Positions 31,769-55,900 of a stretch of DNA of 64,000 nucleotides are shown in pieces. A program made the position numbers and the translations under genes. The notes under the pieces are model-generated. The model saw only the letters and a list, made by a program, of their open reading frames with translations, was not told the origin of the DNA and ran no database searches. The stretch is from Candidatus Obscuribacterales bacterium (GTDB lineage: Bacteria > Cyanobacteriota > Vampirovibrionia > Obscuribacterales > Obscuribacteraceae): assembly GCA_019744775.1 (NCBI GenBank), contig JAIETZ010000006.1, positions 41,092 to 105,091 of the forward strand. Reading direction: 5' to 3'. Numbering within the stretch: position 1 is the first letter of the stretch; every line of letters starts with the position of its first letter.

Positions 31769-31872
31769 CGTTGAGTGGGCGTTGTTCAGCATGTCCTGCG
31801 GCGGTGAATGTAGCTTTGCTGATTGGCTAGCCATGAGTGTCCGGTTTGGTGCTCTGGGGGTCGGCTAGTGCT

Positions 31873-31977
31873 ATGGGTACAAGTAGGTCTTTACTACCAA
31901 CCAAGGTGCTAATGGTTTTATTAACCTGGCAGTTGATTCTGCCGGGATTTTTGGCGTTTCCGCCCGCTGCATACGCT
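31873..31977 (+). other. Sec-type signal peptide of gene 3
   Basis: The sequence is MGTSRSLLPTKVLMVLLTWQLILPGFLAFPPAAYA|QDAS. It has a basic n-region (R5, K11), a hydrophobic core and an A-Y-A site, followed by a Pro/Ala-rich linker (TPPAAPAPAPTP). Confidence 0.65.
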
Positions 31978-34900
31978 CAAGATGCCTCAACTCCACCCGC
32001 TGCCCCTGCTCCCGCCCCCACCCCTGACCTCGACTTAAGCTCTGCCGCAAAAAATTTCACAGCCCCGACCAACCTTAGTCCGACCAATATTACTGTCGGT
32101 GGTCAGACCGTAACGGTCCAAGCATCGCAAGCACTAACTGCAGCTGAATTTGTTGCCGTGCGCCAAGTTATGAATACAGGTAACCAGTACCTACAATTAA
32201 ACGATCTCGGGGTAGCAGTGGGTGGCGGACTTAGATTAAATCCGACCCTAATGACCGGCATTGGCAACCTTGTCGTACCTGAAAGTGTGAGAGTGTCTCA
32301 AAACGCTGCAGTTTTACAAAGCCTCAACTTGGCAGGCAACTTCGTCAATTCGGGCACCTACAATATCTTTTCGTCCAACCCGGCAGTGACAGCCGCCAGT
32401 ATTAACGCCGCCAATATTTTCAACAATGCCGGCGCCACAATAAGTTCGTCTTTAGCCAACCTCACCCTTAATGCAGTCAACAACATAGTCAACGCCGGAA
32501 CAATCACCAGCGCCGGCAATTTGTCCATGATGGCCGGTGGTTCAATTACCAACACCGGGGCACTGGCAATGATGTCGGCGCTCAACAATATAAACATGAC
32601 CGCCAACAACATCGTCAACAGCGGTGTCATTCAATCACAATTGGCCAACATCAACATCGCCTCGCAAATGGCCAGCAATTTAGCCATGAACAACATGGCA
32701 GGACAATTAAAAGCGCTCAGCGGCAATATCAACTTCCGCGATTTAGCATTTTCCGGCAAGCACAACTTGAGTCTCATCGGTGGAGATTTCTTGTCTCACC
32801 AACTGAACATGTACTCCGGCGACGGAATTGTGAATGCCGATATAGGCAACGTCACCGGTCAAATAAACATCTCAGCCGGTGAAGCACATGTTAGTGCAGC
32901 AACAAACAATTTAAACCTGGGCAACATGAACATAACCGGAGATCCGACGTATTACAACACTGCAGGCGATGTTACAATTTCCGGTAATCTTGGTACCAGC
33001 ACTACGCCTTTAACAGTTTTAGCCATAGTTGCCAGCGGCAATATTCTTACAACTACAGGTGCCGGTTCGATAGACACTCGTGGACTATCAGGCAATGGTG
33101 GAGCGATAACTATGGTCGCCGGCGCCAAGTTTACTTCCGATGGTCCGGCATCCGGTAGTAATGACACCACATCTACTCTCACAATCACCGGCGCATCGCT
33201 CACCGGCGGCAAAATCGACTTAAATACAGGTGCGGCAATCTCTTACATCGGTTCGTCCAGTACAGGTGGCGTTGGTAATGGCGGCAACATCCAATTAGTA
33301 GCCTTTGCCGGCTCGGCTTCCGACTCAGGCACAATTACATTGCCGACAAGCACCCCGGTTTTTGCCAACGGCAATGGCGGCGGTAATGGTGGTGCCATCT
33401 CCATGATAGCCGGAGCCAATTCCGGCACTGCAATTACGACCGGCGATCTAACTTCTACCGGAGCAAGTGGAACAGGCAGCATAGCTCTGGCAACGGCACA
33501 GCCGACTATTTTTACTATATTCAATGACCCAAATGTAATCATCTCACCTGGAGGAGCCATAGGCTCAGGAGCCTTTATTGCCGGTGCCACCACAGGAGCT
33601 TCCATATCAACTCAAAACCTGCAAACATCAGCAGGAACAGTAAGCATCACTGCCGGTAATAACGCCGGCATCAACACAATTACAAATGCCGGTGGCACGG
33701 TCACAATAAATACCACCAGCTCAACAGCCTTCAATATTGGCGGCGGTGGTGTCAACGGCACCACTGGAGCAATTACTGCCAATAACACATCCGGGCAAGG
33801 GGGTACTATTTCCATAACCAATAACGGTTCCGGCGGCATCACGCACAACACAACTGCCAACCTCAGTGTCACCTCAGCCGGCAACGGACGAGGCGGGGCG
33901 ATTATACTCAATGCAATCGGCACAGGCGCAGGTGGACCATTAACCATCGGTACAGGCGCCACAGCAGTCACCATTTCAGCCAATGCTATCGGCACAGGCT
34001 CCGTCGGTGTCGCACCTGCAGCGAACATAAGTTTGCTAGGCACAACGTTGAGCTTCAGCACAAACGGTCTAACGCTAAGTTCGACAGGCGGCACGTCAGG
34101 CGCCGGCGGCAAAGTTAATGTCTCAGTCTTAGGTGGCACATTAACAGCCGGTACAGCTACTTCTCTCATCATCAACGCAACAGGTGGTGGCACATCCGGT
34201 GCGGGGGGCACGATAAGTCTCGCCTCAAGCGGAGCTTTGGCAGTTACAACTGGCGCCAATTTTACCAACGCGCCCACAAATGGTGCCGGTGGCGTCTATA
34301 ACCTCACGTCATATGGCTCTTCCGTCACGGTGACCGGTGCTCTGAGCGCTAGCGCTGTCGGCGCTAATGGTGGCGCGGGCGGCAATATATTCGCCTCTGC
34401 CGCGACCACGGCTAGTTTCTCCAGCACAGTCAGTGCAAGCGCAATTGGTTCTATCGGCGGAGCAGGCGGCACTATCTCAATACTGAGTAATAGCGGCACG
34501 ACTTTTAATATCGGTGGCGGCGGCGGCAACGGCACAGGTGGTGCAATCACTGCTAATGCCGTTACAGGCGGTCAGGGCGGACAGCTATACATCACAAACA
34601 ATGGTACGGGCGGTATCACACACAATACTACCGCCAACGTAAGCGTCACTTCTGCCGGCAACGGGTTGGGTGGACTTGTCCAACTGGATGCCGTCGGCTC
34701 AGGTAGCGGTGGTGCGTTAGTAATCGGAAATGGCGGAACGGCTGTTACCATATCAGCTAATGCATCGGGCTCAGGGTCAGTCGGAACATCCAACAACAAC
34801 ATCCTTCTCTATGGAACAACAATCACTTCTGCAAATGGTTTGACATTAAATGCAACCGGTGGCACTACGGGTGCCGGCGGCAAAATTATAGTGTCGACGT

Positions 34901-37900
34901 CCAACTCCGGAATAACAGCAGGCTCCGCCACTTTCGTGGTCAACGCCGTGGGCGGATCGACTTCCGGCGCCGGTGGGCAAATAACTCTAAATTCATCCGG
35001 CGCTCTAGCTGTAACCACAGGAGCTAATTTCACTGCCGCGCCAACTAATGGTGCCGGTCCTTCATATACTTTCATCTCCACTGGTTCTACTATCGCTGTC
35101 ACCGGCGCCCTGAGTGCCAGCGCCGTTGGTGCAAACGGTGGTGCCGGCGGCAGTATTTACGCCAACGCATTTAGCAGTGCCGGTTTCTCCAGCACTGTCT
35201 CAGCCAGCGCCCTAGGCAGTACAGGTGGTGCAGGCGGAACAATTACCATTTTCTCCAATAGCAGTTCGCCATTCAATATTGGTGGTTCGTCAACGCAGGG
35301 AACAAGTGGCGCCATTACCGCCAATGCGGTAACGGGCGGACAAGGCGGACAAGTATTCATTACTAATAATGGCATTGGTGGTATCACTCACAACACTACA
35401 GCCAATATCAGCGTGACTGCTGCCGGCAATGGACTAGGCGGCGTGGTATCACTAGACGCAGTTGGCACGAACAGCTTAGGTGGCACCCTCACACTAGGTA
35501 CCGGCACGGCTGTCACCATCACCGCCAGTGCCGCAGGCTCTGGAACCGTCGGCTCAGCTGTTACCAACAACATATTTTTGAAGGGATCAACAATCAGCTT
35601 CGTCACCAATGGTCCCATTCTTACCGCTTCAGGCGGCACAACAGGTGCCGGTGGCAACATCTATATTGAAGCCACCAATGGAGCACTCACTGCCGGCACC
35701 GCAGCCACATTAAGGCCGACAGCTACCGGTGGTTCCACATCAGGTGCCGGTGGCACTATTACCATTAAATCATCGGGCAATTTGTCGGTAACACCTGGAG
35801 CGGGAGTGTTCACCGCAGCTCCTGTCAGTGGCGCCGGTCCAACATACAACTTAATTTCTACGCAGGGTTCCGTGACGGTCACGGCAGCTCTAAGCGCCAG
35901 TGCTGTCGGCGGAATAGGCGGCAATGGCGGCAACATCACCGCCACAGCCGGCACCACCGTTGGTTTCACTGGTGCATTAAGCGCCAGTGCTCTTGTGAGC
36001 GGCAATGGCGGCAGTATTACTATCACCTCCAACAGCTCCACAACCTTCGCTGTCGGCGGCTCCGGCACCCAAGGAACCAGCACCACCATAGCCGCTAATG
36101 CAGTGTCGGCAGGACAAGGCGGCAAAATTTTTATTACAAATAACGGCACGGGTGGTATCACCCACAATACTTCCGCCAACTTAAGCGTCACTGCGGCAGG
36201 CAATGGCTTAGGAGGCGTAATCTCACTCGATGCCGTCGGCAGCAACAGTGTTGGCGGACCTTTGACCTTAAACGCAGCAGGAGGTGTCGCCATAACCGCC
36301 AGTGCAATAGGATCCGGTACTGTAGGTGTTGCAGTCAGCAATAATATTTTTCTCAAGGGCGAATCCCTTGTCATGGGCGCAGGCGGCGTCCAAGCCAACA
36401 CTACAGGAGGCACAACAGGCGCCGGCGGCAAAATAACCGTGCAGATTACCAATGGAGCGCTCACAATCGGAACAGCAGCTACCTTGCGCTTGAGCGCAAT
36501 TGGCGGCGGTACCTCTGGAGCCGGAGGCACCATAACCATTTCATCGAGTGGTGCACTGACTGCTACGCCTGGTGCCAACTTCACTGCTTCCCCGACAAAT
36601 GGTGCCGGTCCCATATTCTCTTTAACTTCAACTGGTTCTTCTGTAACAACGTTAGCAGCGTTGAGCGCCAGCGCCACAGGAGCTGCCGGAGGCGCCGGCG
36701 GGTCGATAACTATAAATGCAGCAACGACTGCCAATATTACGGGAGCACTGGGCGCGAGTGCTTCGGGCTCAACCGGAGGTAATGGCGGCGTCATAAGCAT
36801 AAGCAGCAATAGCGACTCTACATTCAATATTGGCGGTTCCGCCACTCAAGGGACGAGCGGCGCTCTCTTGGCCAATGCAGCTACTTCCGGACAAGGCGGG
36901 GTTATAACCATAATTAACAACGGCGTAGGTGGTATCACGCATAACACATCCGCAAATATCAGCGTGACAGCCGCCGGCAATGGACTGGGCGGCTCGGTGA
37001 CCCTCGATGCAGTCGGCACCGGCACCGGCGGTCCTCTGCAAATAGGCACCGGCGGCACCGCAGTCACCATTGCCGCAAATGCGTCGGGAACAGGAGCTGT
37101 CGGAACAGCACCTACGACAAACATCAGCTTAAAAGGCACCACTCTTGCCTATAGCAGTCTCGGCTTAACTCTGCAAGCAACTGGTGGCACAACCGCGCCG
37201 GCAGGCGGCAAGATTTCGGTACAAGTTACAGACGGAGCCATTCAGACAGGTGCCAGCAACTCGCTTTTGATTAGCGCGGTCGGTGGCTCAACATCCGGCG
37301 CAGGAGGCACCATTACCATTAGCGCCAAGGGTGCTCTTGCTGTTACTCCGGGCGCCAACTTCACAGCCGCACCCACAAGCGGCAAGGGCGGCAACTACAA
37401 CCTTACTTCCACCAACGATTCTGTGTCCATAATTGGCGGTAGCTTATCAGCTAATGGTGTCACGTCAGGCGCCGGTGGCTCAATCACCATATCGGCAGGA
37501 CAAAACAATTCAGTGAGTGGTGGCAGATTATCATTTAGTACCAGTTCATCAACATTGACAGCAAATGGAGCTGGAGGCGGCAATGGTGGCAGCATCAGCG
37601 TGACCGTCAGCAGCCCCTTCGCCTTCAATATTGGCGGCGCAGCAACAAATGCCAATGGCACAGGGGCAGCCATTACAGCTAATTCAGGCGGTTCAGGCGG
37701 CGCTGGCGGGTCTGTAGTTATTACCAGCACAGGCATCGGTGGAATTACCTTACCGGGCAATAACATCTCGGTTAACGCAACCCTCGGCGCCGGCGGCACA
37801 ATAAAGCTTTTAGCTGCTGAAGGACCCATAACAGGACCTCTAAATATCGCCGCCGGTACAACACTCAATGCCGGCTCGACAATGGACGAAGGCGGAGAAA

Positions 37901-40900
37901 TTTGGCTCTCCGGTTCAACCATTAACTGGACCGGCTCTGCTGCACAAGGACTCACGCTAAACGCTGATGCATCACAAGTCGTCAACTTTGGTGACGGGGG
38001 AATAGTATCCATCAAAACAACAGACTCTGTCACCTCCTTGAATATCGGCACCGGTGCTCAATCCATTTCCATAAGTGCCAGAGGCGGTGACATGACAGGC
38101 GCCGGTGGACAAGTGACCCTTTCTTCCGGAAAAGACATCACTTTAAGTATCGGCTCAGGCTTTGTGGTTGGACCGACTAACGGTAGTGGTGCAACATTCA
38201 CATTCACTGCCGGAACCAACGCATCTGCCGGCAGCGGCAATATCAGTATAAGCGGCGGTAGTCTCTATGCCAGCGCCGTAGGCGCCGGTTTGTCGGGCCT
38301 AGGTGGTAGCGGCGGCACGGTCACCATTATTGCCGGACAAAATAATGCCGCAGGCGGCACTCTGTCATTTGCCACCGCCGGCAGCACAATCCTATCCGAC
38401 AGCACAGGCACTATTGGCGGCGGTATCATTAGTATCACAACTAATAGCTCTACGGCATTTAATATCGGCGGTGCTTCTCCAGGTGCCAATGGAACGGGTG
38501 CAGCCATATCCGCCAGAGCCACCGGACACGCAGGAAGTGGCGGCTCAATCACAATCAAGAACATGGGTAGTGGTGGCATTACGCTGCCGGGAAGCAATAT
38601 TTTAGTCAACGCCTCCAGTGGCGCCGGTGGGACTATCACACTTGATGCGGCAAGCGGCTCAACAGCAGGAGCACTCACCATAACCGCCGGTTCCGTACTA
38701 TCTGTCAACGCGGCTGGCTCCGGAAACTTCAACGGCGGACAAATCACTCTCAAGGGCTCCAGTATTTCTTGGTCCGGTGCCTCAACTCCGGGACTGACCC
38801 TTAACGCCAACGCGGTTGGCTCAGGAAACGGCGGCTCCATTTCCGTGACCACAACAGGAACAACCAGCGATCTAGCTATTGGCACGTCAGCCACAAGCCT
38901 GAGCCTGGCTGCACGTGGTGGTTCACTTAATAGCTCGAATGGAAAAGGTGGCACAATTACTATCTCGGCAGGACGCGATCTAAGTGTTACAACAAGTTCG
39001 ATATCTGTTGCTCCTCAGGGAGCCACGGGAGATGGAGCTACGATAAGTCTTATTGCCGGTGCCACCGGTAGCACCGGTAATCTGGCTATCACAGGCGCCT
39101 TAGATGCAAGTGCCGTCACACGCGGGTCAGGCTCAAGTGCGGGCGGTTCGATAGCACTAGCATCTAAGTCTTCCACCACTTTCAACGTCGGTGGTGGTGG
39201 GTCCAATGGTACTACCGGCGCGCTGTCCGCTAATGCCACGCAAAATGGACAAGGCGGAACGATATCCATCACTAACAACGGCACAGGTGGTATCACTCAC
39301 AACACGACAGCTAACATAAGCGTTCTATCCGCTGGTCAGGGCAAGGGCGGAGTTATTTCTCTCGATGCAGTCGGCTCAGGTTCTGGAGGTCCTTTAACAC
39401 TAGGCACAGGAGCAACCGCTGTCACCCTCTCAGCCAACGCACTCGGGCAAGGTATTGGAGGCACCACACCAACAAACAACATATTCCTTAAGGGAAGCAC
39501 ATTGAGTTTCAGCACCAACGGACTTACCCTCAACTCAAATGGCGGTAGAACTGGCTCTGGTGGCAAAATAACAGTTCAATTACTCAGTGGCAATATAACA
39601 GCCGGAACAGCAACAACTCTTATCGCTACGGCCACAGGAGGCACGACCTCCGGCGCCGGCGGCAGTATATCTCTCCTCTCTGGTTCCGGCTCGGTCACCG
39701 TGACCACCGGAGCCAGCTTCACAGCTGCACCGACAGACGGTGCGGGACCTTCCTACACACTAACATCCAGTTCGCAGGCAGTTTCTGTTACCGGCGCCCT
39801 TAGCGCCAGTGCTGTCGGCTCAGTGGGAGGCGTAGGCGGTTCAATAACGGCAAGCGGCGGAACGACATTAGGATTCTCCAGCACTGTCAGTGCAAGCGCA
39901 ATTGGTTCTACAGGAGGAGCCGGTGGAACAATCACATTGTCCAGCACAAGCGGCAGCACATTTAACGTTGGCGGATCTTCCACTCAAGGCACCAGCGGAG
40001 CAATTACAGCCAATGCTGCCGCTAACGGACAGGGCGGCACCATCTCCATTACCAACAACAGCACAGGTGGTATCACTCATAACACAAGTGCCAATATGAG
40101 CATAACCGCCGCGGGCAATGGTGAGGGCGGAGCAATTCTCCTTGATGCCGTAGGTAGCGGGGCCGGTGGCACATTGACACTGGGAACCGGTGCAACAGCA
40201 GTAACACTGGATGCTAACTCCATTGGAGCAGGCAGCGTAGGCACCGTTATGACTAACAATGTGCGTTTGAAAGCAACCAGTATCAGCTTCTCGACAAACG
40301 GTCTAATTGTTAATGCCACAGGAGGTACAACTGGGGCAGGCGGCAACATATCAATAGAAGCAACCAACGGCGCCTTAACAGCAGGAACATTAACAACACT
40401 AGTTCTTAATGCCGTTGGCGGCAGCACATCCGGCGCAGGCGGCAGCATCACTCTTAAATCCAGCGGTGCGTTGACCGTCACGCCAAGCGCCAGCTTTAAT
40501 GCAGCAGCTACAAGTGGTGCCGGTCCATCCTATAGCCTGACGTCCACAGGCTCGTCTGTATCAGTCGCAGCCGCCCTCAGCGCATCGGCAACTGGCGCCA
40601 TAGGCGGCAATGGCGGCAGCATCACCGTCAGCGCCGGAACTACAGCCGGCTTCACCGGAGCTGTGAGCGCCAGCGCCCTTGTCAGCGGCAATGGTGGCAC
40701 CATATCAATTGCCAGCAATAGCGCAACAACATTCGGTGTCGGCACGTCAACAACCCAGGGTACAAACAGCACAATTGCTGCAAATGCGGTTACCAGCGGA
40801 CAAGGCGGCACAGTTTCAATAACCAACAACGGCACCGGTGGTATCACTCACAACACTACCGCCAACTTGAGCATTTCCTCAGCCGGTAACGGCTTAGGCG

Positions 40901-43900
40901 GCTCCATTGTATTAGATGCCGTTGGAGCCGGCTCCGGCGGACCACTCACACTAGGAACGGGAGCCACTTTGCTTACACTAACAGCAAATGCATCAGGCTC
41001 CGGAACCACAGGCACTGCTCCCACAAATAACATAAGAATCAAAGGCTCAACATTGAGCTTCAGCACTAATGGTCTTTCCTTGAATGCCACCGGTGGAACA
41101 ACAGGATCTGGAGGCAACATTTACGTCCAAACAACAACAGGTGCCGTCACAGCCGGTACCGCCACGACACTCATTGCCAGCGCTATCGGTGGATCGACAT
41201 CAGGAAATGGCGGCACAATCAGCCTCATTGCCGGTGGCGCATTGACCGTAACACCGGGAGCAAGCTTCACCGCCGCCCCAACAAGTGGCGCCGGTCCAAC
41301 ATACAATCTCACTTCCAGCAATTCAACAGTTAGCGTAGCGGCAGCCTTAAGCGCTAGTGCTGTAGGAGCAATCGGCGGCAATGGCGGCAGCATCAACGTC
41401 AGTGCAGCTAGTACTGCCGGATTCACCGGTGCGGTAAGCGCTAATGCTCTAGTAAGCGGCAAGGGTGGAAGCATTGTAATTTCTACCAACAGCGGTACGA
41501 CCTTCGGTGTCGGCACCTCCACTACCCAGGGAACTAATTCAACTATTTCCGCCAACGCCGTATCGTCCGGACAGGGTGGCACAATTTCAATAACCAACAA
41601 TGGTACTGGTGGTATCACTCACAACACTACTGCGAACATCAGCGTCACTTCTGCCGGCAATGGTGAAGGCGGCACAATCATTTTTGACGCTATCGGCACC
41701 GGGACTGGTGGCACACTGACACTTGGAACCGGCGCTACTCAAGTAGCCCTATCAGCGAATTCCTCCGGATCCGGCAACTTCGGCACTATGCCGACCAACA
41801 ACATTCGCCTCAAAGGCTCGACGCTTGCCTTCAGCACCAATGGACTTGCTCTCAATGCAACCGGCGGTACAACCGGAAATGGCGGTAACATTTCCGTGCA
41901 AGTGACAGGCGGCACATTAACAGCCGGCACAGCAACTACATTAATAGTCAACGCAGGCGGTGGTTCTACAACCGGCGCAGGCGGCACAGTGTCATTGACC
42001 TCCAGCGGCACCCTCACCGTGACAGCCGGCGCAAGTTTCTTGGTTGCACCCACAAGCGGCAATGGCGGCAACTTCAACCTAACTTCAACCGGCGCCAACG
42101 TGAGTGTCACAGGTGCTTTCGCAGCCAGCGCGGTAGGTACAATAGGTGGTGATGGCGGCACTATAACAGTCAACGCTGCTACAAACGCCCTATTCTCCAG
42201 CACAGTCGCTGCCAGTGCAACAGGCATAAACGGCAGTACTGGTGGCACAATCAGCATTACCACAAACAGCTCATCAGCTTTCAGCATGGGCAGTGCGGCA
42301 ACCAACGGCACCTCCGGCGCAATCACCGCACAAGCCAACGTTGGCGGACAAGGCGGCACAGTCAACATAACCAATATCGGCGGCGACATTTCAACCGGAC
42401 TTTCACCAGGCGTCACCACCAGCTCGCTCAATCTAACGTCAAAGACAGGCAACATTGGTACTTCCGGTTCGCCGGTTTTGGTGTCCACATCAATGGTCAC
42501 TTCAAACACAGGTGCGCCGGGAACTTCATTCATATCTAATTCCGGCTCCGCCACAATCATCGGCACGTCAAGCGTCGGCGGCAACTTCTCTGTTACAGGC
42601 ACAACGAGCAACGCCGAAATGTTTACCAACGGCACAGTGACATCACAGACAGGCACACTGACGCTGACTAACAACGGTACCATTAATACATATCACGCGA
42701 TTACCGGTTATGCGCTTGCACTTTCAACATCAGGCAGCAATGGAAGTATTAATCTCGATCAAAACGCCACAGGCATATCCGGAGTAACAATCACCACCAA
42801 CGGCTCTGGCAACGTAACGAACGCTGCATCAACTACCATCGGGACAACCAATTCCTCCATCACAATTTCAACCAATGACGTCAGCTTCTCCGGCTCCATC
42901 AATGCAGGTGTTGGCACTGTGTCTCTTCAACAAAATGGCAACAAGCCGATAAGCGTTGGCGGTTCCGGTGGCACTGTTTCCATTTTGGCCAGCGATTTAG
43001 CTGCCATTACGGCTGGTACCCTGGTGATTGGCAACTCCACCCAACCAGGTGCAATAACCGTTGCCGGAACAATTGATGTGTCCGGCGCAGGTCCTGCAGG
43101 AGTCTATAATTTGCAATTCAATACTACCACTACATTTACCTCGACCGGGCAAACCATAACACTAGGCACAAAATCGCTAACTATAAATATGGGCAATTCC
43201 GCCACACTTGGAGCCACAACCGCCACCACAGGAAACATATATATAACTAGTGGCAACGCACCCACCATAGACGCTGCTGTGTCTACATTAGGTTCGTTAA
43301 TTGTCACTGGCGTAAACAGCATAAATGCAACATCCACGATTGCCAGCAATTTCCTCTATTTATATTCAGACGCCGGTATCTTTCTTAATCAACCGGTTTC
43401 CGGCAACACCGGAGTTGTCTTAATTGCCGCAACCAACAGTATTTCTGCAGACAGCATCAACGCCAATGGGCTCAATGGAGGCAATGTTGTTTTACTAGCT
43501 GCCGGCGCCGTTAACATAACCGGTACAATTGACACCTCATCCACAGGCGGTGGAACTGGTGGAAACATCAACATCATAGCTAGCAGCTCATTCAGCAATA
43601 TTCAGGTACAGAATCTTACTACTACAGGTACTAGCGGTGGCGATGTAGTAATGTCCTATCTTGGCACATCTCTGCCTGGTATTGGCGTAAATGTAACTGG
43701 TAATATCACAACCGATGCAACAGGACTCAATGGATCAGCGGGCTCAATTGCACTTACCGGTTCTGCCAGTATTCTAATCTCCGGCAATATCAGCGCTCAA
43801 GCCACTGCCAATGGTAGTTCAACCACAGCCCTAGGAGGCAGCGTCTTCCTTTCTAGTGGCAGCACTTCATCGACCGCCATCAGCGTTGGCACCATCAATA

Positions 43901-46900
43901 CAAGCGCAACCAACAATGGCACAGGCGACAAGGCTGGCAACATCATCTTACTTTCGGCCACCGGTTCAACTGGTCTCAATCCTTCAAATATCACCAAAGG
44001 GACACTGACCCAAACTGGAGGCACTGCGGGCAGCAACCTTGTGTACGGACTGAATGGTGCTGCCACCACCATTCCCTCAAGTCTGAATGTCACACCCACA
44101 ACAAGTATCAATATTCGTCCAGGCGGCTACGATACCGTCCAAGGGTCAGGCGGAGCCGGATCGCTCAATATTGCTATGAATACCGGTGGCGATACACAAA
44201 TGCTGGTCCCACTCAATACTAGCGCCGGCTCCGGAAGTACATCGCTGTTCCTAAATTCATTTACCCAAGTATCCGGGTCTGAAAGTCTAATACTTGCTTT
44301 ACCGGGCGGTCTAACCACAAATGCTGCAATTAACACTTCCTCAACAACAGGGTTGGTGAATATAGTTGCTCAAGGCGCCATAACTATGGGCGGAGCTCTA
44401 AACCTCAATTCAGCCTCTGATGTGATCGTACAAAGCACAAATGCCAGCGGTATTACAGGCGGTTTCAACTTTACTGCCACTGCAGCACGGCATGTTCAGA
44501 TATACGGCACCATGACGCCATTTAGCACCACCGTAGGTGGTAATGTCAGTCTGACATCTACAACCGGTGCTACCTACGTCAGCGGCAACATAACAACAAC
44601 ACCTTCTACCAGCGGTAACGGCGGCTATGTAAGCATAGTCTCCGGCACGACGATAACCAAATCCAATATAACTACTTCCGCCACAGGCACTACGTCTAAC
44701 GGTGGATACATATATCTAAATGCGCAAGGTGCAATAACTACCGGCAACCTGACGTCCACCGGCGGCGCCTCATCGGGAGTCCCAGGCAGAATCAACATCA
44801 CAGCCGGAGCCGGTGGTACAGGCAATCTTGTAACAGGCACAATTACCGGGGCTGGTGGCAGCGACACATCTTCAATGTACTTAAGTTCACCAGGCTCAAT
44901 TACGACAGGTGATGTTAACTTCATCTCAACCGTCAACATGACCGCCGGTACTAATGTGTTAACTGGTGCGATAACCACCAGAAACAACGTTACTTTGTCC
45001 GCAACCTCAGGTTACGTCGTAGCCGGCGGTAGTATTTCTACCGTGCCTTCCACTTCAGTAGTGGGTGGTTACTTGAAAGTTGACGCAGGAACTTACATCA
45101 CTGTTCAATCTATCAACACCACGGCAGGTACAGGCGGCAATAGCAACGGCGGTACCGTCTATCTAAACGCACAAAGCGATATAACTGCCGGCAATATTAC
45201 GGTACACGGACAAGGGACAGGTGCTCCTGGCGCCGTGCTTATTTCTGCCGGAAACGGTGGCACAGGCAATGTGCAAATTGAAAGCATCTCCGGCTCGGGA
45301 GTTAATAACGGAGTCAATGTCGGTATAGATACGCCCGGCACCATAAGCGCTGGACACATCGCCTACGTAGGGCTAGTAGCAATGAGTGCCGGCACAGGCA
45401 TCACCCTATCAGGCATCAACACCACGCCATTCGCTGCCACCGCCCAAGCAGGCTTTATAATCGTTCGCTCCTTAACAGGCAATATCAATGTCACCAATAC
45501 CGGTATCACAGCCAACAGCTCCGGCTCAGGCATACTTGGCGCAACCGTCAGACTGCTTGCTAATGCCGGTGATATCACCGTCGCCGGTGGCATCAACCTT
45601 GCCGGCACATCCACCGCCTCCGGAGGCGGACTGGAAGTAACAGCCAATAACCTGACTCTGTCCGCAGGACTGGATGGCGGCGCACTTAATTTGTCCGGCA
45701 GCGGCACCACCGGCAGTACCGGATACGCCTACTTATTTACTCAAAACAACGTCACCCTCAATGCAATTACCATGAACTCCGGTACATCCGGATTGGGATC
45801 GCTATTCTACATTCAAGCCGGCAACAGCGGCACAGGCAATATTTCAACAGGTGCTATTACCGGCACCACTGCTTTGTCAGGTCATGAAATGCTATTTATG
45901 GCTCCCGGCACAATCACCGTCAACGGTAACATCGACATACACATAACCAGCACAGGATGCTGCGCTACATTCCAGGCAGTGGCAGGCAACGCGGGCACAA
46001 GTCGTGCAGCAGCCCAATCAGGAACACTTCTTATCAACGGTAACATCGATGCATCAGGTGCCAATAATGGCGGCAATGTGTATCTCGTCAACATGGGCAC
46101 TAATGGTGGCATCACAGTAGGCAATATAAATACTAACGTCACAACCTCCGGACAAGGTAATGCAGTAGTCGTTATTGCGCATGGCGCACTTAACCTGGGC
46201 AACATCAACACAAGTGCCACCGGTGTTTTCTTCGGCGGTCCGGTATTCTTGTCCAGCGGCGCTACATCCGGAACAGCAGTCACAACAGGCACAATAACAG
46301 CTAGCGGCGGAGCAGGTTCACAAAGTCTCTGGATTGCAAAAACATCAACTGGTGGCGTCAGTCTCGGAACACTGACTGGATTTGCCGGTCAATTTATAGG
46401 TACGCCTACCGGTGCAGTTGCCAACGTCACAAGCTCTCAAACAATTGCCCTTGGTTCAGGAACACTGACAGGATTCAATCCTGGCGGCTTTGACTCAATC
46501 AACGCACCAACGGGTACAATCTCACTCACCTATTCAGCCGTAAGCCCCTGGATTCCGCTTGTTGTACGCAGCGGGAATTTCAGCGCACAAACACTAACCG
46601 GCACTGCCGGCACGATTGGTTTAGTTTATGCTGCAGGCGACATCAATATCGGCGGAAACATCACCGGTATCTCAGACTTAAAACTGCGTAGTTCAGCCGG
46701 TGGATTTACTGCGCAAAACGTTACCATAACGCGCACCGGCTTAAACTCCTTAATGGGTATCAATGTGTCGCAAGACATCACAATGGCCAACACTTTCAAC
46801 TGGTCATCCAGCTGGGACGGTAATGGTGGATTCATGGGACTCTATTCCGCAGGTGGCGGACTGAATTTAGGAACCGCCGGCAACAGCAGCAGCAATTCAA

Positions 46901-49900
46901 TTAGTACAGCCGCCAGCGGTGCCACAGGTTTTGGCGGAAACATGATCATAGTCACAAGAAATTCACTGGTTGACTACAACACGACAATTACTTCAGCCGG
47001 CGGCTCCACGTCGGGTAACGCCGGACAAATAAGCATCCATTCACTAACCGGATCACTGGACTTCTATAGCCGCTACAACACCGTTACTCACAACAATTCA
47101 AGCATTCTTGCCAATTCCAACAGCGGAGCCGGTGCCCTCATTGACTTACAAGGATATAACGGCATTAACTTCTTGAGGGACAATAGCTTATCAGGCGGCA
47201 CAACTAACGCCACTGTTAGTGCCAGCGGCACAACAGCCGCCGGCACAATACTCTTCTGGAACTTCACCGACAGCGGCATCCTTAACATGTCGGAAGCCAT
47301 TGCTGTTTCAGCCACCGGCACCAATGGTGGCATCTCGGCTAACATTGGACAAACATCAACAATCAATGGCACCCTCACAGCGCCTTCCGTACTTTTGCTC
47401 ACCGACTATCTAAATGAAACTATCACCACTACAGGTGCTATAACTGCTTCCGGCAGCGGTACTGCGGTCAACATGACCGGACTTGGTGCCAATTTCGTTC
47501 TCAATGGTAACGTTACTGCTTCTACAGCATCAGTTGGAGTGGCATCACTTGGATTAACTATCGGCAGCTCATCGACAGTGTCAGGAGTTGGCGCAACTCT
47601 CACCACATTCAGCTTAGCCAACTCCGGTGTGGTTACTTCAGCCACAACCGGCACTCCAGTAACGCTCACAAGCACAGGACCACTCACGCTATCCGGAACG
47701 GGAGCATACAACCTGACTGGTGGCGGTCCTAACACGTTGACAATTTCAGTTACCGGTGGGGCAACTCTTACCGTCAACGGCACCAACACATTCAACCCAG
47801 GAAGCGCGGGTACAGTCAACTTTAATGCACAAAACTATGGTAATTCCATCGTCTTCGGCACCGGCACCAAGACCATAACCGCTGCCACAGGTACAGTAAA
47901 CATCAGCTCACCAAATGTCACTTTCCAAAGTGGTACCAGCCTTTCTACCAACTTAGGTGCAGGCAGAACATTAACAATCAACTCCGGCGGTGGCGCCAAT
48001 CCATTAACAATAACCGGTCCAGGCACGGGTAATACAGCTTCGCTGGTTGTTTCCGGCGGCAGCTTCTCTATCTCACCGACATCAGGACAAGCAGTTATCT
48101 TTACCGGCGGCGGAACAATCAACTTTACTGGTGGCGCAACCACAATATCAACCGGGTCTAATGCGGACATCACAATTGGAACGAACATCGGCGGAGCAAC
48201 TGCCAAAACAATCAGTGCCAACGGCACAGGTGACATCATTCGTGTAGGTGACAGCACTGTTTCCGGAACAACCGTTGCTCTCTCGTCCGGAACCGGCGAC
48301 ATTGGCACATCGACTATGTTTATTCAGACAAGCGCCAGCTCCAGTCTGACAGCAAACTCAGGCAGCGGCGGCACTGCCTTCGTCACCAACGCCGGGGCTG
48401 TGAGCATCGGTGCTTCGACTGTCGGCAGCACATTCTCTTTAACCACCACTGGAGCCTCAGCCAACCTGACTACTACAGGCGCCATAACATCCAGCACCGG
48501 CACTCTTACAATTACTACAAACGGCAACCTAACAGCCTCGAACGCACTTTCCGGTAATTCATTAGTATTGGTAACATCATCAGGCAGTAACGGCACCATT
48601 GCCTTAAATGCGAATGCCACCGGCACCACTGGAATAACCGCTACTACCGATGGCACCGGTAACTTCACCAACGGTGCATCCAGTGCAATTTCCACGTCCG
48701 GCAATACACCCATATCAATCACAGCTAATGATGTTACCCTCTCCGGCACAATGAGCGCCGGCAGCGGCACTGTAACACTGGTTCCCAATGGCGCAAAATC
48801 GGTTTCATTTTCCTCAACTGGCGGCACGTTCTCTATTGCCGCGTCCGACATCGGAGCAATTACCGCGGGCACTCTAATTGTCGGTACAACAGCACAAGCC
48901 GGCGGTTTTACCATAGGCGGTGCGGTCAACGTTGCCGGCGCCGGACCAGCTGGTGTATTCAATCTTCAATTCAACAATGGTGGCGCCTTCACTTCAGCCA
49001 ACCAGACGATAACTATCGGCGCCCGGACCCTGACAATAAATACGTCCGGGGCTTCCAGCACTACCCAGCTAGGTGGCATCTCCGGCAGCAGCGGCTCAGT
49101 TACCGTGAGCTCCGGCGGCACACTGACTATTGGCGTAGGTGTTAGTTCCAACCTTACAATGTCGGGAGCTTCAACCATCAACTTGTCTACTAATGGTAAT
49201 AATTCCGGAATTGCCGTTAATGCCAATATTTCCACAGGCTCAAGTGGTTCTGTCACCATCAACGCTAATGGCTCAGGAAGCATTAGCCGTTCCGGATCTG
49301 TGACCGTCAGCGGTCCGACGGTTACCTTAGTCTCAGGCTCCGGAAATATCGGCGCGTCAGGAACAGCAATCTTAACTGCGGCCACAAACACTCTCACCAT
49401 TAATACAGGTGGCAGCGGTACGGCCGATGTATCCAACGCCGGAGCCATCACTCTTGGTGCTTCGACAGTGGGCAGCAACTTTACATTCACGACAACCGGC
49501 TCCTCGGCTAACATCGGCACATCCGGAGCCATCACTTCCACCAGCGGCACATTGACTCTGACCGCCAATGGCAATATCACAGCCTCCAATGCCTTCTCCG
49601 GCAATGCGCTTGTTTTGCAAACGTCATCTGGATCTAACGGTGCCGTAACTCTTAATGCCAATGCAATCGGTACAACTGGTGTCACCATTACAACAGATGG
49701 TACAGGCAATGTCACAAACAACGGCGCCACGTCAATTTCCAGCACGAATGCGCCGATAACAATAACCGCAAACGACGTCTCCTTCACCGGCGTCAATGCC
49801 GGAACAGGCACCGTTACCCTTCAGCCAAATGGAGCTAAAGCAATTTCCATAAATGGCTCGAGTGGAACCTTTACCGTGCTGTCAACCGACTTATCGGCCA

Positions 49901-52900
49901 TTACCGCCGGGACATTAATAATTGGTACTACATCACAAGCTGGTGGCATGACACTGCAAGCGGCCCTTAACCCAACCGCCAATTTGCAACTCCTAAATGG
50001 CGGCAACTTTACCTCGGGTGGTCAAACGATAACGATGGGGTCAAGGACCCTGACTATTAATGCGCTAGGAACAACGACTGTCAACGCCATAAGTGGTAGT
50101 GGTTCAACTACACTCTCAGTCAACGGGGGCACCGGACTTACTGTCAATGGCATCGTCAACATTAGTGGTATTGGCGGAACAATAAATCTCACTACATCTA
50201 ATAACGGCTCTATTGCCTTAAATGCAGATGTCGGACAAACCGGCGTGACGACAAATATCAGTGCTAATGGTTCGGGTAACATAACAAATGGTGGCAGCAT
50301 AGTTTCAGGCGACTTTGTAAACCTAAGTTCCGGTACAGGTAATATCGGAACCGTTGGAACACCTATTCAAGTCGGTCAAACAGGAGATAAGTCCGTAAAC
50401 ACCGGAGGCACAGGCTCCGCATTTATCACCAGCGCCTTTAACCTCAGCTTAATTACCTCTACGGTTGGTGGCACTTTCACAGTTACTACAACGGGCGCTT
50501 CGAATATAATCGGTGTAAATGGTGCCCTTACATCTACTTCCGGAACATTGACACTTACCTCAAATCTCGGCAGTGTCGTCGTCGGCAATCCCGTGTCAGG
50601 CAATACGGTTGTCTTACAAACTGGTTCTACTTCCAACGGAACCATAACTATTAATAGCAGCGGATCTGTTACCGGGACAAATGGCGTCACCATAACTACT
50701 GATGGCACGGGCGATTTGGTAGTATCAAATTCCAATGCTATCTCCTCTACCAATGCTGCAATCGCAATAACAGCCAATACCGTCACGCTAGGCACCGGCA
50801 CCATTAATGCAGGCTCCGGCACAGTTTCACTTCTACCAAATGGCGCTAAGTCAATTGCTGTTGGCGGGTCCGGTATTGGTGGTACATTCTCAATATCGGG
50901 AACTGAACTCGCCGCAATAACAGCCGGTACTCTTATCGTCGGCACAACTACACAGACTGGAGGCTTGACAGTCAGTGGTGCTATCAACGTTTCCGGAACT
51001 GGTGCCGGAACGTACCATCTACAATTTAACAATGGCGGCAACTACACATCCTCCGGTCAAACAATTACCTTAGGCGACCACAACCTCACGGTTAATTCAC
51101 TGGGAACCATCAATTCAGGCACAGTAACAGGCAGCTTAAGCACAGTCAATATGACCAGCTCGAGCACAACGACAATTTCATCAGCAGTAACGGTGGGCTC
51201 ATCTGGCACTGTTTCCTTAACAACAACAAGCAACGGAGCCGTGACAGTTAATGCCAACCTCGGCGGCGGCTCAAGCACTACAATAACCACCAACGGTACT
51301 GGCGATGTCACCAATGCCGTCTCTACCACAATCTCTGCTGCCAGTGGCGGCACTATCTCTATTACCGCAAATGACGTAACTTTCTCCGGCTCTGTTAGCG
51401 CGCCATCAGGAACAGTCACTATTCTTCCCAATGGTAACAAGTCGATTACCGTTGCTGGGGGCGCCGGCACGATGACCATTGCGGCATCGGACTTGTCCGC
51501 AATTACAGCCGGAACGCTTATACTGGGAACCACTACAAATTCCGGCGGTTTGACTATTAGCGGAACAGTCGATGTATCAGGCGCTGGACCAGCCGGCGTT
51601 TACAACTTGCAATTAAATAATGGCGGTGCGTTTACATCCTCAGGTCAAACGATCAATCTAGGGGCAAAAACGCTAACCGTCAATACACTAGGCGCCTCCA
51701 GCACAACGACTCTCGGCGCAATCAATGGAACCACCAGCAATGTCACAGTAAGTTCCGGAGGCACACTTACACTCAGTAGCGCCATGGCAATTTCAGGAAC
51801 GGCTACTGTTAGTTTGTCCACAAACGGCAATAACTCCGGCATTGCCATCAATGCCAATGCTTCGACCGGTGCAAGCGGTAGCATTGCCCTAAATGCAAAT
51901 GGGTCCGGCACCATTTCCCGCACAGGCGCAGTGACACTCACATCCGGCACCTTACAGCTCACTTCCGGCACAGGTAACATCGGCTCCGGAGGCACTCCGA
52001 TTCAGACAGCCGCGAGTATTTTAACTGCCAACACAGGCAGTCCCGGAACTGCCACCATAACCAACGCCGGCGCTGTAACACTCGGCGCTTCAACTGTCGG
52101 TGGCAATTTCTCTGTAACTACAACAGGCGCTTCTGCCACTATCGGAACCTCGGGAAATATCACATCAACTTTCGGCAGTCTAACGCTGACAGCCAATGGC
52201 ACCATAACCACATCCAACACTGTATCTGCCAGTACATTAATATTGCAAACATCATCTGGTTCCAACGGTGCGGTCAACCTTAATGCCAATGCTACCGGCT
52301 CAAGTAGCGTAACTATCACAACTGATGGTACCGGCAACGTCACCAACGCCGTCTCGACTTCTATTTCCTCTTCAATTGCTGTTACCATCACGGCAAACGA
52401 CGTTGCATTTTCCGGATCCGTCAGTAGTGGGGGTAACTTATCACTCATTCCCAATGGTGCCAAATCAATTACAGTCGGATCAGCCGGAGGTACATTCAAT
52501 GTGCAATCAGCCGATCTTTCCGCTATTACCGCCGGAACACTTATCGTCGGCTCAACTTCTCAAGCCGGCGGACTGACAATTGGTAGCGCACTCAACGTAT
52601 CCGGCTCCGGTGCTGGTGCATATAACCTACAATTCAACAACGGCGACGTCTTCACATCCTCGGGTCAAACAATTACTCTTGGCGCCAAAACGCTCACCGT
52701 CACTACACTAGGAGCATCAAGCACCACCACGCTGGGCGCCATCTCCGGAACCACCAGCAATATCACCGTCAGCTCCGGCGGCACACTCACTGTTAGCGGG
52801 GCTATTGCTGTATCAGGCACTGCAACCGTGCAATTGCAAACTCCCGCCAACTCTTCTCAAATCGCTATAAATAATAATGTTTCAACAGGATCAGGCGGCA

Positions 52901-55900
52901 CAATCAATATTACTAATACCGGCAACGTTAGCAGATCCGGAAGTTTCACATTAACATCAGGTACGGTTAACTTCCAGAACAACGGCGGCACAGTAGGCTC
53001 AGCAGGTACACCGATGCTCACCGCAGTTTCAAACTTAACCGTCAATGGCACCAGTTCCGGATCAAGCACCATCTCAAACACAGGCGCTGTGAGTATTGGC
53101 GGCTCATCAATTACAGGTGACCTATCAATTACTACAACTGGAGCATCTGCCAACATCACCACCACCACCTCATCAATCCAATCAATATCGAACAGCCTCA
53201 CCCTCATAGCAAATGGCAACATAACGACTACCAGCGGCGTGAGTGGTTTTACGGGCTTGACACTGCAAACATCATCCGGTACAAACGGCAACATAAACTT
53301 GCAAGGCAGTCTTAACGCTGGCGCTCCAAACGGATCAGTCGTTATAACGACCGACGGAACCGGTAATGTAACGAGCACAACTCAGCCGATAAACGGCGCT
53401 AATAATGTGACTATCACAGCCAATGATGTAAGTTTCGGAAGTGCAGTACTTGCCACTACACTCACCCTAATTCCAAATGGCGCAAAGTCCATTTCCGTCG
53501 CCTCTTCATCGGGCACATTCAGTGTCACCACCAGTGACATCGCGCAATTTAATGCTGTCGATATTGTTATTGGTACAACTGCTCAAGCAGGTGGTCTAAC
53601 CGTCGGTGGCGCACTCAATATCTCAAGTTCCACTTTCTCATCGTTGCAGCTCAACAATGGTGGCAACATTACGTCATCCGGTCAAACCATTACTCTTGGT
53701 GCCAAGCCCCTATCCATCAACGCTGTCGGCACAATCACCTATGGCAGCATCGTGAGCACAACCGGCAACATATCCATGACGTCAGGTAGCACTTTGAGTA
53801 TCCCAACTGCAATAACAATCTCAAGCAGCGGCATTATATCCCTTACCACCAATGCAGCCAATGCTGCTATCACAATAAGCGCCAATGTTAACGCTGGTGC
53901 TTCCGGCATTATCAACGTCAGTGCCAATGGTTCAGGAACAATTACCCGCTCCGGCAGCGTAACACTGACAGCTAATACAGTAAACTTGACTTCAACCAGC
54001 GGCAACATAGGTGCATCAGGAACACCAATTCTCACGGCGGCCGGAACTCTAACCGCAAATACGGGCGGCTCTGCCACAGCCGATATTAGCAACACCGGCG
54101 CTTTGCTCATCGGAACATCCACAATCGGCGGCAACTTCTCTGTGACAACAACAGGGGCTTCCGCCACCATCGGCACATCGGGGTCCATTACTTCTACAAG
54201 CGGCATACTCACCCTCACAGGCAACGGCACCATTACAGCTTCCAATGCTCTTTCTGGTAACGCATTAGTACTCCAAACATCTTCAGGCTCTAACGGTGCT
54301 ATAACCCTGAATGCCAACGCTACCGGAACAACCGGTGTCACGATTACAACGGACGGCACTGGTAATGTAACGAATGCCGGCTCCACGTCCATTTCCAGCA
54401 CCAATTCCGCCGTTACCATTACGGCAAATGACGTTGCCTTTTCCGGCACGGTCAACGCAGGCACTAATACAGTCACGCTACTTCCCAATGGCTCAAAGTC
54501 AATAACAGTTGGTTCAGCCGGAGGCACCTTTAACGTACAATCAGCCGATCTGTCTGCCATCACAACAGGAACTCTTATCGTAGGTACCGGTGCGCAAACA
54601 GGCGGACTAACAGTAGACAGCAATATTGATGTCTCCGGAGCTGGTCCTAGTGGTGTCTACAATCTGGACTTCCGCAACGCCAGCAGCATCACTTCCGCCG
54701 GACAAACCATCACGCTGGGTGCCAAATCCTTAAACATCCAAACCTTTGCTTCTAGCTCAATCACCCTCGGCGCTATTTCCGGCACAACAAGTCCTGTAAC
54801 AGTGACATCCAGCGGCACATTAACCATCGGTGCAGCCATTGCTGTTTCTGGTACAGCAACCATCAATTTGTCTAGCGGCACCAATTCCGACACCACTATT
54901 AATGCCAATATATCCACCGGCGCCAGCGGTGCTATCCAAATCTTTGCCGGTGGCACCGGCTCAATTACACGATCTGGTGCTGCTACTCTCACTTCCGGCA
55001 GCGTTAGCCTTATGACCATAACTGGTTCTATTGGCTCTTCCGGAACTCCGATACTTACCTCCACCGCATTATTAAGCGCAAACACCGGCAGTCCTGGCAC
55101 TGCAACTATTTCCAATGCTGGTGCTACAACTCTAGGTTCATCAGTTGTAGGCGGCAACTTCTCAGTCACCACAACTGGTGCCTCCGCTAACCTGAGTGTG
55201 GCCAGCAATGCCGTTTCTACCAACGGTACTCTGAGCTTAACGGCCAATGGCACCCTTTCAGCCGCGGGTCCATCCAGCGGAAATATTGTTCTATTAACTA
55301 CATCATCAGGTTCCAACGGTGCTATTACTCTTAACAACAACGTCACAGGTACCAATGGCATCACTATAACCGCTGATGGCACGGGAAATGTCACCAACGC
55401 AGTTTCAACGTCCATAAGTACAACTAACTCACCAATATCCATTACCGCAAATGATGTCGCCTTTTCAGGATCTGTCAATGCCGGCACGAACAATATTTTT
55501 CTTAATCCCAACGGCGCCAAGTCCATTTCTGTAGGTGGAACAGGTGGCACTTTCTCCGTGACAGGAAGTGACCTCTCGGGAATTACTGCCAGTACTCTAA
55601 CTATTGGCGATTATTCTATAGCCGGCGGACTAACCGTGTCAGGCAGCATTAATGTATCAGGCTCAGGCGCGGGTGCTTACAATCTGCAGTTGTATAATGG
55701 CGGCGCTTTTACTTCCTCCGGGCAAACAATTACTCTGGGCGCTAAATCTTTAGAGATCACCACCCTTGGAGCATCAAGTACCACAACGCTGGGTGCCATC
55801 TCTGGCACAACTAGTTCTATCAACGTCAGCTCCGGCGGCACATTAACAGTAAATGGTGCAATAAATGTTAGCGGAACCGCTACCGTTATTCTGTTCGCTA

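Follow-up and report, generated by a model that had tools for sequence, protein, structure and literature searches.

A conserved shaft block, probably a displaced and duplicated head-proximal shaft, in the core of a giant fibre protein from Candidatus Obscuribacterales

Introduction

The TpsA/FHA adhesins (Fil_haemagg PF05594, Fil_haemagg_2 PF13332, TPS domain PF05860) are very long, Sec-exported, Gly/Ser/Thr/Asn-rich beta-helical fibres with an N-terminal head and modular arrays, and the autotransporter passengers of the Ag43, Hap and pertactin type have a right-handed beta-solenoid as adhesin shaft. Both descriptions also fit gene 3, the subject of this study, which encodes a protein of 10,865 amino acids (aa) in a Candidatus Obscuribacterales bacterium (GenBank assembly GCA_019744775.1). 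The gene belongs to a stretch of 64,000 nucleotides (nt), positions 41,092 to 105,091 of contig JAIETZ010000006.1 (C8:41092-105091), hereafter the window. Giant genes of uncultured lineages have been described from the Omnitrophota, in which bacterial proteins of more than 10,000 residues contain large beta-helical parts and carry enzymatic and SecA-type domains as well as antiparallel beta-helices (bioRxiv 10.1101/2023.11.21.568195); Melainabacteria and Obscuribacter are unmentioned in that paper, and a literature search for Obscuribacter with giant genes or adhesins found none.

An earlier reading of the window, made without database searches (the sequence-only reading), had singled out nt 43200-48200 of gene 3 as a weakly repetitive, aromatic-enriched stretch between C-type repeat units, and had proposed that it is a specialised binding domain, an enzymatic beta-helix domain or another fusion scar. 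Here we report that this core is made of two diverged copies of a ~470-residue beta-solenoid block with 'GGY' units between them, and we consider it, at a probability of about 0.68, to be a displaced and duplicated copy of the ancestral head-proximal shaft of its family, serving as a structural solenoid in the fibre.

The shaft block in the core of gene 3

When aa 4801-5200 of gene 3 were searched exhaustively with HMMER against 1.84 billion representatives, only eight proteins came up, all members of an Obscuribacterales giant-fibre family, and in these the matching segment lies a few hundred residues past the N-terminal signal peptide and head. One of them, P0001, aligns with aa 4381-5200 at 38% identity and 93% coverage (278 bits), and its aa 356-1110 are collinear with gene 3 aa 4391-5153 (composition-corrected E-value 1e-87). 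Across P0001 and three complete small members, the minis P0003, P0004 and P0010, the likeness to gene 3 extends over ~800 collinear residues at 31-38% identity, with the same predicted all-beta solenoid and with the common motifs AGNSGTGNI, GTSRA.AQSG, VNMGT.G, AHG..TTG.I, FLSSGA.SGT, F.GTP, NPGGF.S and R.G. The minis, of 1,140-1,248 residues, consist of signal peptide, head, block segment and FecR-like tail.

We built a profile from the most conserved ~470 residues (alignment A1) and searched it in 107 genomes of the order. Six further genomes of the same family contain full-length copies (184-537 bits); in the source genome, block copy 2 of gene 3 (model positions 2-465 of 467) is the sole strong copy, and the other giants there show only partial matches of 50-100 bits. 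The gap between head and block is 170-760 aa in nine open frames with a visible head, three of which are complete minis of 1,178-1,259 aa with head, block and tail. Gene 3 departs from this layout: its head ends at aa 378, and 4,260 residues separate it from the block, which begins at aa 4642. The block is likewise internal (aa 5693-6183), downstream of C-type units, in a 10,226-aa giant of genome G018 (G018:C52:50069-80746). As defined by A1 and by a 15-sequence alignment (A2), the shaft block is an uncatalogued family with no Pfam entry.

Unlike P0001 and the minis, gene 3 has a second, diverged copy ahead of the block and C-type units on both flanks. The diverged copy 1 scores 39-48 bits against the block profile (independent E-value 6e-17) and aligns with aa 4660-4960 at a shuffle z of 7.4; it is 50-73% identical to a module of a 25,007-aa paralogue on contig C3, where this module occurs first behind the head (aa 500-813) and then every ~1,140 aa. 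The 'GGY' units between the two copies are collinear with the first post-head residues of the P0001-type relatives (GSITFTG.I.T.P...GGYV...). The core is indeed weakly repetitive, as had been proposed, with a duplicated ~150-aa unit, a weak third unit and the diverged block copy; these repeats were judged by shuffle tests (z-scores for the units in Table 1), because a composition-corrected self-BLAST of aa 4150-4700 reported none. Apart from composition, the block itself has no detectable relation to the B and C units (z = 0.8 and 1.4).

Consecutive 200-aa pieces of gene 3 were compared with genes 1-3 of the window. Tiles over aa 3801-5301 reach a best paralogous identity of 27-38%, against 55-79% in the arrays on either side, so that the low-repeat stretch of the sequence-only reading is real, with slightly different edges (Table 1), and the motifs quoted for it were all found inside. 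Its four Trp segments were recovered as well (aa 4832, 4905, 4989/4993 and 5141; nt 46330-47259), and they hold five of the ten Trp residues of the protein (binomial p = 0.011). Aromatic enrichment holds for Trp and Tyr (31 of 95 Tyr, 2.1-fold, p = 2e-5) but not for Phe (41 of 227, p = 0.15), and it is a modest effect: the 300-aa segment richest in Phe, Tyr and Trp (aa 4801-5100) contains 7% of them, and Thr, Ser, Gly and Asn still make up ~52-58% of each 300-aa segment of the core. The supposed likeness of the core start (aa 3860-3901) to the post-head stalk of gene 3 was not borne out, as a stalk profile matches aa 374-465 (82 bits) and nowhere in the core exceeds 0 bits; the resemblance is a generic one.

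Junctions and origin of the core

The core interrupts the C array without disturbing its repeat phase. The left unit stops at phase 7692 and the array resumes at phase 7681, which equals 7341 plus one 340-aa period, and the C-type units of three relatives cease to match gene 3 at aa ~3836-3846. When the core is removed, the joined flanks align through the junction with the C array at 49% identity (311 bits). The frame stays open, and GC content and composition are even over the core and both junctions.

These observations bear on whether gene 3 arose by end-to-end fusion of two complete neighbouring genes or is an assembly chimera of two giant genes. Such an origin would fit the start of the core, whose sequence in relatives begins ~10-25 residues past the head end, as well as the proneness of giant repeat genes to mis-assembly and the internal cap-like relics seen in other giants of the source genome and in the G018 giant. 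However, profile scans of gene 3 (hmmsearch --max) found no head, cap or tail relic inside it: the best internal scores were -3.4 bits for the head, 0.5 bits for the tail and -4.5 bits for the cap (aa 4921-4974), and the cap profile gave matches of 10-14 bits only in the repeats directly before the true cap. A C array in phase on both sides is not expected from a tail-to-head fusion, and the open frame, the even composition and the position on a 182-kb contig in a 13-contig assembly speak against it too, so we regard a fusion or chimera as improbable. Because the core holds no head, cap or tail relic, its edges look like clean mosaic junctions and not like a degenerate gene boundary, and the missing relics together with the in-phase C array argue for an in-frame mosaic by recombination of paralogues. 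The proposal of another fusion scar therefore survives in one sense, a headless block copy in register within the C array, and fails as a gene boundary.

In a maximum-likelihood tree P0001 and P0002, with their post-head copies, form a group with the gene 3 block (support 89/88), and the internal block of the G018 giant groups with the post-head copy of its own genome (98/99). Since the two internal copies group with different post-head copies, the block would have reached an internal position on two or more occasions, provided that gene conversion in G018 has not distorted the tree. The gene 3 branch is about twice as long as those of its sisters, the sequence departs from the consensus at 22% of the conserved columns (on the high side of the 4-27% seen among the sequences), and, in contrast to the relatives, the conserved Asp before the FLSSGA motif is missing.

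At least two subtypes of head and post-head region occur in the family: type I (TGDPTYYNT.GDVTISG...MVAGA) in genes 1-3 and most giants of the source genome, and type II (TGDP(D/N)L(I/V)..G.G...GSITFTG.I.T.P) in P0001, the minis and C5:1-18378. The head of gene 3 is of type I and its internal post-head region of type II. P0002 is a 573-residue fragment on a 1.7-kb contig whose NCBI record is named as a Microbacteriaceae metagenome-assembled genome; this actinobacterial filing is probably a binning error, because all other matches are from Obscuribacterales.

Fold and conservation of the block

An AlphaFold model of aa 4641-5140 with A2 as input is all-beta and confident (predicted local distance difference test, pLDDT, 86.7; predicted template-modelling score 0.89). 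Up to aa ~4880 its strands are short and spaced ~27-30 residues apart; next come four long antiparallel strands, and after these the pattern is rung-like again; by the secondary structure of the model, the four strands are the only non-rung element of the block and contain the conserved Arg4911. A single-sequence model of aa 4701-5300 reached a pLDDT of 46 and was kept out of the fold search, and hydrophobic autocorrelation of the core gave no clear rung period.

A Foldseek search of the pLDDT-87 model against PDB and BFVD returned no match at E <= 0.001. The best PDB match, to Ag43, is non-significant (E 0.016; template-modelling score, TM, 0.11), as are the next ones (an ice-binding protein, Hap, VacA p55, HxuA and EtpA), all generic beta-solenoid shafts. 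Neither Pfam nor NCBIfam gave a match for six tiles across 42.9-48.6 kb or for the 15 homologues, and no PDB chain was matched by the core sequence or the block profile. As a check of the sequence-only reading this outcome is divided: the matches are generic beta-helix shafts and no catalytic signature was seen, but the middle of the region is conserved in homologues.

The conserved columns of A2 hold Gly, Pro, Asn, Ser or Ala, five aromatic positions, Arg4911 and one Asp (the column of aa 4802), which is Pro in gene 3; no cluster of Asp, Glu, His or Lys is present among the conserved columns of the 15 sequences. In gene 3 the block signature reads FIGTP (aa 4853-4857) and NPGGFDS (aa 4881-4887), with P4857, P4882, G4883 and G4884 invariant in all 15 sequences and F4853, F4885 and S4887 nearly so. 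Of the five Trp residues of the core, W4832 alone stands at a conserved aromatic position.

An enzymatic right-handed beta-helix cargo (a pectate or polysaccharide lyase, a glycosidase or a tailspike-like protein) could have been suspected from the predicted beta-solenoid and from the pectate lyases, PL6 alginate lyases and tailspikes that stand far down the Foldseek lists. However, those matches have E ~0.2 or worse and TM <= 0.28, the better PDB matches are to non-enzymatic adhesin shafts and ice-binding solenoids and are themselves non-significant, the homologues carry no catalogued domain, and no acidic, His or Lys position is conserved save the one Asp that gene 3 has lost. With no lyase or hydrolase profile, no significant fold match for aa 4641-5140 (the part modelled with confidence) and no conserved catalytic residues, an enzymatic beta-helix identity was rejected; this reading, already largely refuted, is now very improbable, and the enzymatic proposal for the core is unsupported.

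The conservation of the block could also mark a functional station, that is, a binding or contact module (for a surface ligand or for lateral association of fibres) or a folding nucleus after export, shown mid-fibre besides the head. This would agree with the cross-genus conservation, including the invariant F-G-T-P and N-P-G-G-F, the five aromatic positions and Arg4911, with the usual presence of one strong block copy per protein, adjoining the head, with the confidently modelled four-strand antiparallel stretch that breaks the rung pattern after NPGGF, and with two independent cases of a block within a fibre of more than 10,000 aa. Yet no known binding domain was matched, the conserved residues are mostly turn-shaping Gly, Pro and Asn, four of the five Trp are not conserved, weak versions of the block serve as plain array units in the C3 giant, and the gene 3 copy itself lies on a long branch and has drifted from the consensus, including the change of Asp 4802 to Pro. 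A functional station is thus a possible but unlikely account. Somewhat less probable again is that the block is an undescribed functional module of giant fibres (a folding nucleus for a solenoid exceeding 10,000 residues, or else a site of lateral contact or for a ligand), of which long fibres gained a needed internal copy independently in gene 3 and in the G018 giant. As for the specialised binding domain of the sequence-only reading, it has no match among known binding domains, and a binding role can still be entertained because the block is conserved across genera.

Gene 3, its parts and its paralogues

Table 1. Features of gene 3 and its core, with residue numbers of gene 3 and nucleotide positions in the window
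Feature	Window position (nt)	Strand	Remarks
Gene 3, giant secreted fibre protein	31837..64000 in window, stop at window coordinate 64434	+	one open frame
Layout of gene 3			signal peptide; head aa 106-378; A/B arrays; one C unit; core; C array; cap aa 10208-10545; FecR-like tail aa 10518-10865
Lone C-type unit (aa 3489-3839), adjoining core upstream	42301..43353	+	ends ~70 aa past GQTIT anchor, array phase 7692
Whole core (aa 3840-5440)	43354..48156	+	outside the high-identity arrays; interrupts C array in register
Block copy 1 (aa 3855-4166)	43399..44334	+	diverged copy of first two thirds of shaft block; NIRPGGY for NPGGF
Two ~150-aa 'GGY' units (aa 4197-4346, 4347-4494)	44425..45318	+	mutual alignment shuffle z = 18.6
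Third weak unit and run-in to block (aa 4495-4641)	45319..45759	+	z = 4.2; collinear with P0001 aa ~470-660
Block copy 2 (aa 4642-5107)	45760..47157	+	full-length match to shaft-block profile, 513-521 bits
Block signature F4853-x-G-T-P4857 and N4881-P-G-G-F-x-S4887	46393..46497	+	15-sequence alignment
Four long antiparallel strands (aa 4887-4966)	46495..46734	+	directly after NPGGF; model secondary structure only
Single ~110-aa unit (aa 5006-5116), GLNLGTAGN...LDFYSRYNTVTHNN...DLQGYNGINFLRD	46852..47184	+	tandem-array unit in P0007 and P0005
Transition segment (aa 5117-5440)	47185..48156	+	weak likeness (30-40%) to pre-cap segments of genes 1 and 2; to C units from aa ~5310
C-type array, resumed at aa 5441, phase 7681	48157..60936	+	phase agrees with the end of the left unit to within ~10 residues

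Three giant genes in tandem, all on the plus strand, take up the window; gene 3 is the last of them and ends 434 nt beyond its edge. By profile score its family parts are clear (head 305 bits, cap 659 bits, tail 445 bits). An Rfam scan of 42.0-49.5 kb gave no match, and the minus strand opposite the core region holds short open reading frames only. The two motifs LDFYSRYNTVTHNN and DLQGYNGINFLRD, quoted by the sequence-only reading, both fall within the ~110-aa unit at aa 5006-5116. In P0007 and P0005 the corresponding units are arrayed in tandem, and a CC-x-A-Y-Y motif recurs there at intervals of ~200-218 aa.

The source genome (4.1 Mb in 13 contigs) contains at least 20 giant frames rich in Thr, Ser, Gly and Asn, of 1,860-25,007 residues and most of them with the family head and tail; those with more than 45% of these four residues sum to ~8% of the genome. 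The largest is the uninterrupted 25,007-residue frame mentioned above (C3:174646-249666, minus strand, outside the window), which has a signal peptide, a family head (aa 40-345) and a FecR-like tail (aa 24808-25003) and, if real, would rank with the largest proteins of bacteria. The same contig carries a paralogue of 12,520 residues (C3:4286-41845).

In G018, the giant with the internal block (minus strand) possesses a family head, cap-like relics at aa 2831-3179 and 6675-6977, and an acidic, different C-terminus without a FecR-like tail. P0001, the nearest relative of the block (L006:9764-24245; also L007 and L008), ends with a stop codon that overlaps the ATG of the next, 4,934-residue frame (ATGA). 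This break is present in three independent assemblies and reflects either two genuine genes or a frameshift conserved within one ~6,400-residue gene. Adjacent Cys-Cys pairs are nearly the sole cysteines of these proteins and have a fixed place (CC-x-A-Y-Y) in the units of P0005, P0007 and the C3 giant. Gene 3 has a single such pair (aa 4708-4709; window 45955-45960), just before GTSRAAAQSG, and the sequences raise the question of whether the pairs may form a vicinal disulfide or a metal site.

Further searches for related loci stayed within the same group. The relatives retrieved by motif scan are labelled Candidatus Obscuribacter or Obscuribacterales, and a scan with a 4-sequence alignment gave three contigs only, all from Obscuribacter(ales). 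A related-locus scan with the gene 3 block protein alone had no match, and A2 contains no conserved 7-10-mer. Word-indexed searches, whether with the block profile or with 10,000 aa of gene 3 and a restriction to the block, gave nothing new, as their candidate lists become saturated through length windows and low-complexity words. The gene neighbourhoods of P0001 and P0010 contained no functional hint.

Discussion

The block forms the head-proximal shaft of the Obscuribacterales giant-fibre family and makes up nearly the entire shaft in the minis; most larger members have it 170-760 residues past the head, and the 'GGY' units are its normal linkers to the head. What gene 3 has is a copy of this N-proximal region (P0001 subtype) that lacks the head and lies in frame and in register inside a C-type array, and we infer that recombination between paralogous giant genes most likely delivered it. 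Its job in the fibre would probably be structural, contributing ~55-60 solenoid rungs (~25-30 nm) to a length of the order of 180 nm, and the core might also act as a joint between two array types.

Several points weigh against this interpretation. An ortholog of gene 3 was not found in two same-genus assemblies, which are fragmented and whose C units are only ~48% identical to those of gene 3. No ancestor or relative with an empty site was found, which leaves the repeat phase as the sole sign of an insertion, and a similar picture would arise if C units had multiplied to the left and right of an old block, so whether the block was inserted or the array grew around it is a matter of interpretation. 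Finally, the invariant F-G-T-P and N-P-G-G-F, the conserved Arg, the non-rung antiparallel strands and the cross-genus conservation exceed what a plain spacer needs, and the block may have a specific role in binding, as a folding nucleus or in contact between fibres.

If a displaced shaft is the right explanation, the single part of this 10,865-residue protein that looks unlike the rest would be ancestral shaft amid younger arrays and no hidden enzyme, and gene 3 would offer a worked example of how giants grow, by array expansion and by in-register shuffling of N-proximal regions between paralogues. The ~470-residue domain family defined here is restricted to its lineage and has a confident model, and its profile could be used to annotate Obscuribacterales giants, which are now without Pfam matches. 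The minis (1,140-1,260 aa), made up of just head, block and tail, offer a small system for experiments, since their expression and study are much simpler than those of the giants.

With pectate-lyase-like enzymes and phage tailspikes, gene 3 has only the beta-solenoid architecture in common, as no sequence or fold match of weight and no conserved catalytic residues connect them. It also differs from the Omnitrophota giants in that its shaft is without any catalogued domain. With the TpsA adhesins it shares the general design, and the TPS-domain structures of EtpA, HMW1 and HxuA are among the non-significant Foldseek matches of the block model. However, neither a Pfam TPS domain nor a haemagglutinin repeat was matched in aa 1-600 or in any core tile (E <= 1; a chance match to PmrD only), and no TpsB (Omp85-type) partner is present in the window, with its three giant genes only, or beside P0001 and P0010, although the whole genome was not searched for one. 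Whereas autotransporters have a C-terminal beta-barrel translocator, this is absent from gene 3, in which the FecR-like tail profile is matched and no Pfam autotransporter family is. Gene 3 thus resembles both groups of adhesins in its long solenoid fibre, differs from TpsA in its FecR-like C-terminus, and is 10-20 times larger than the autotransporters.

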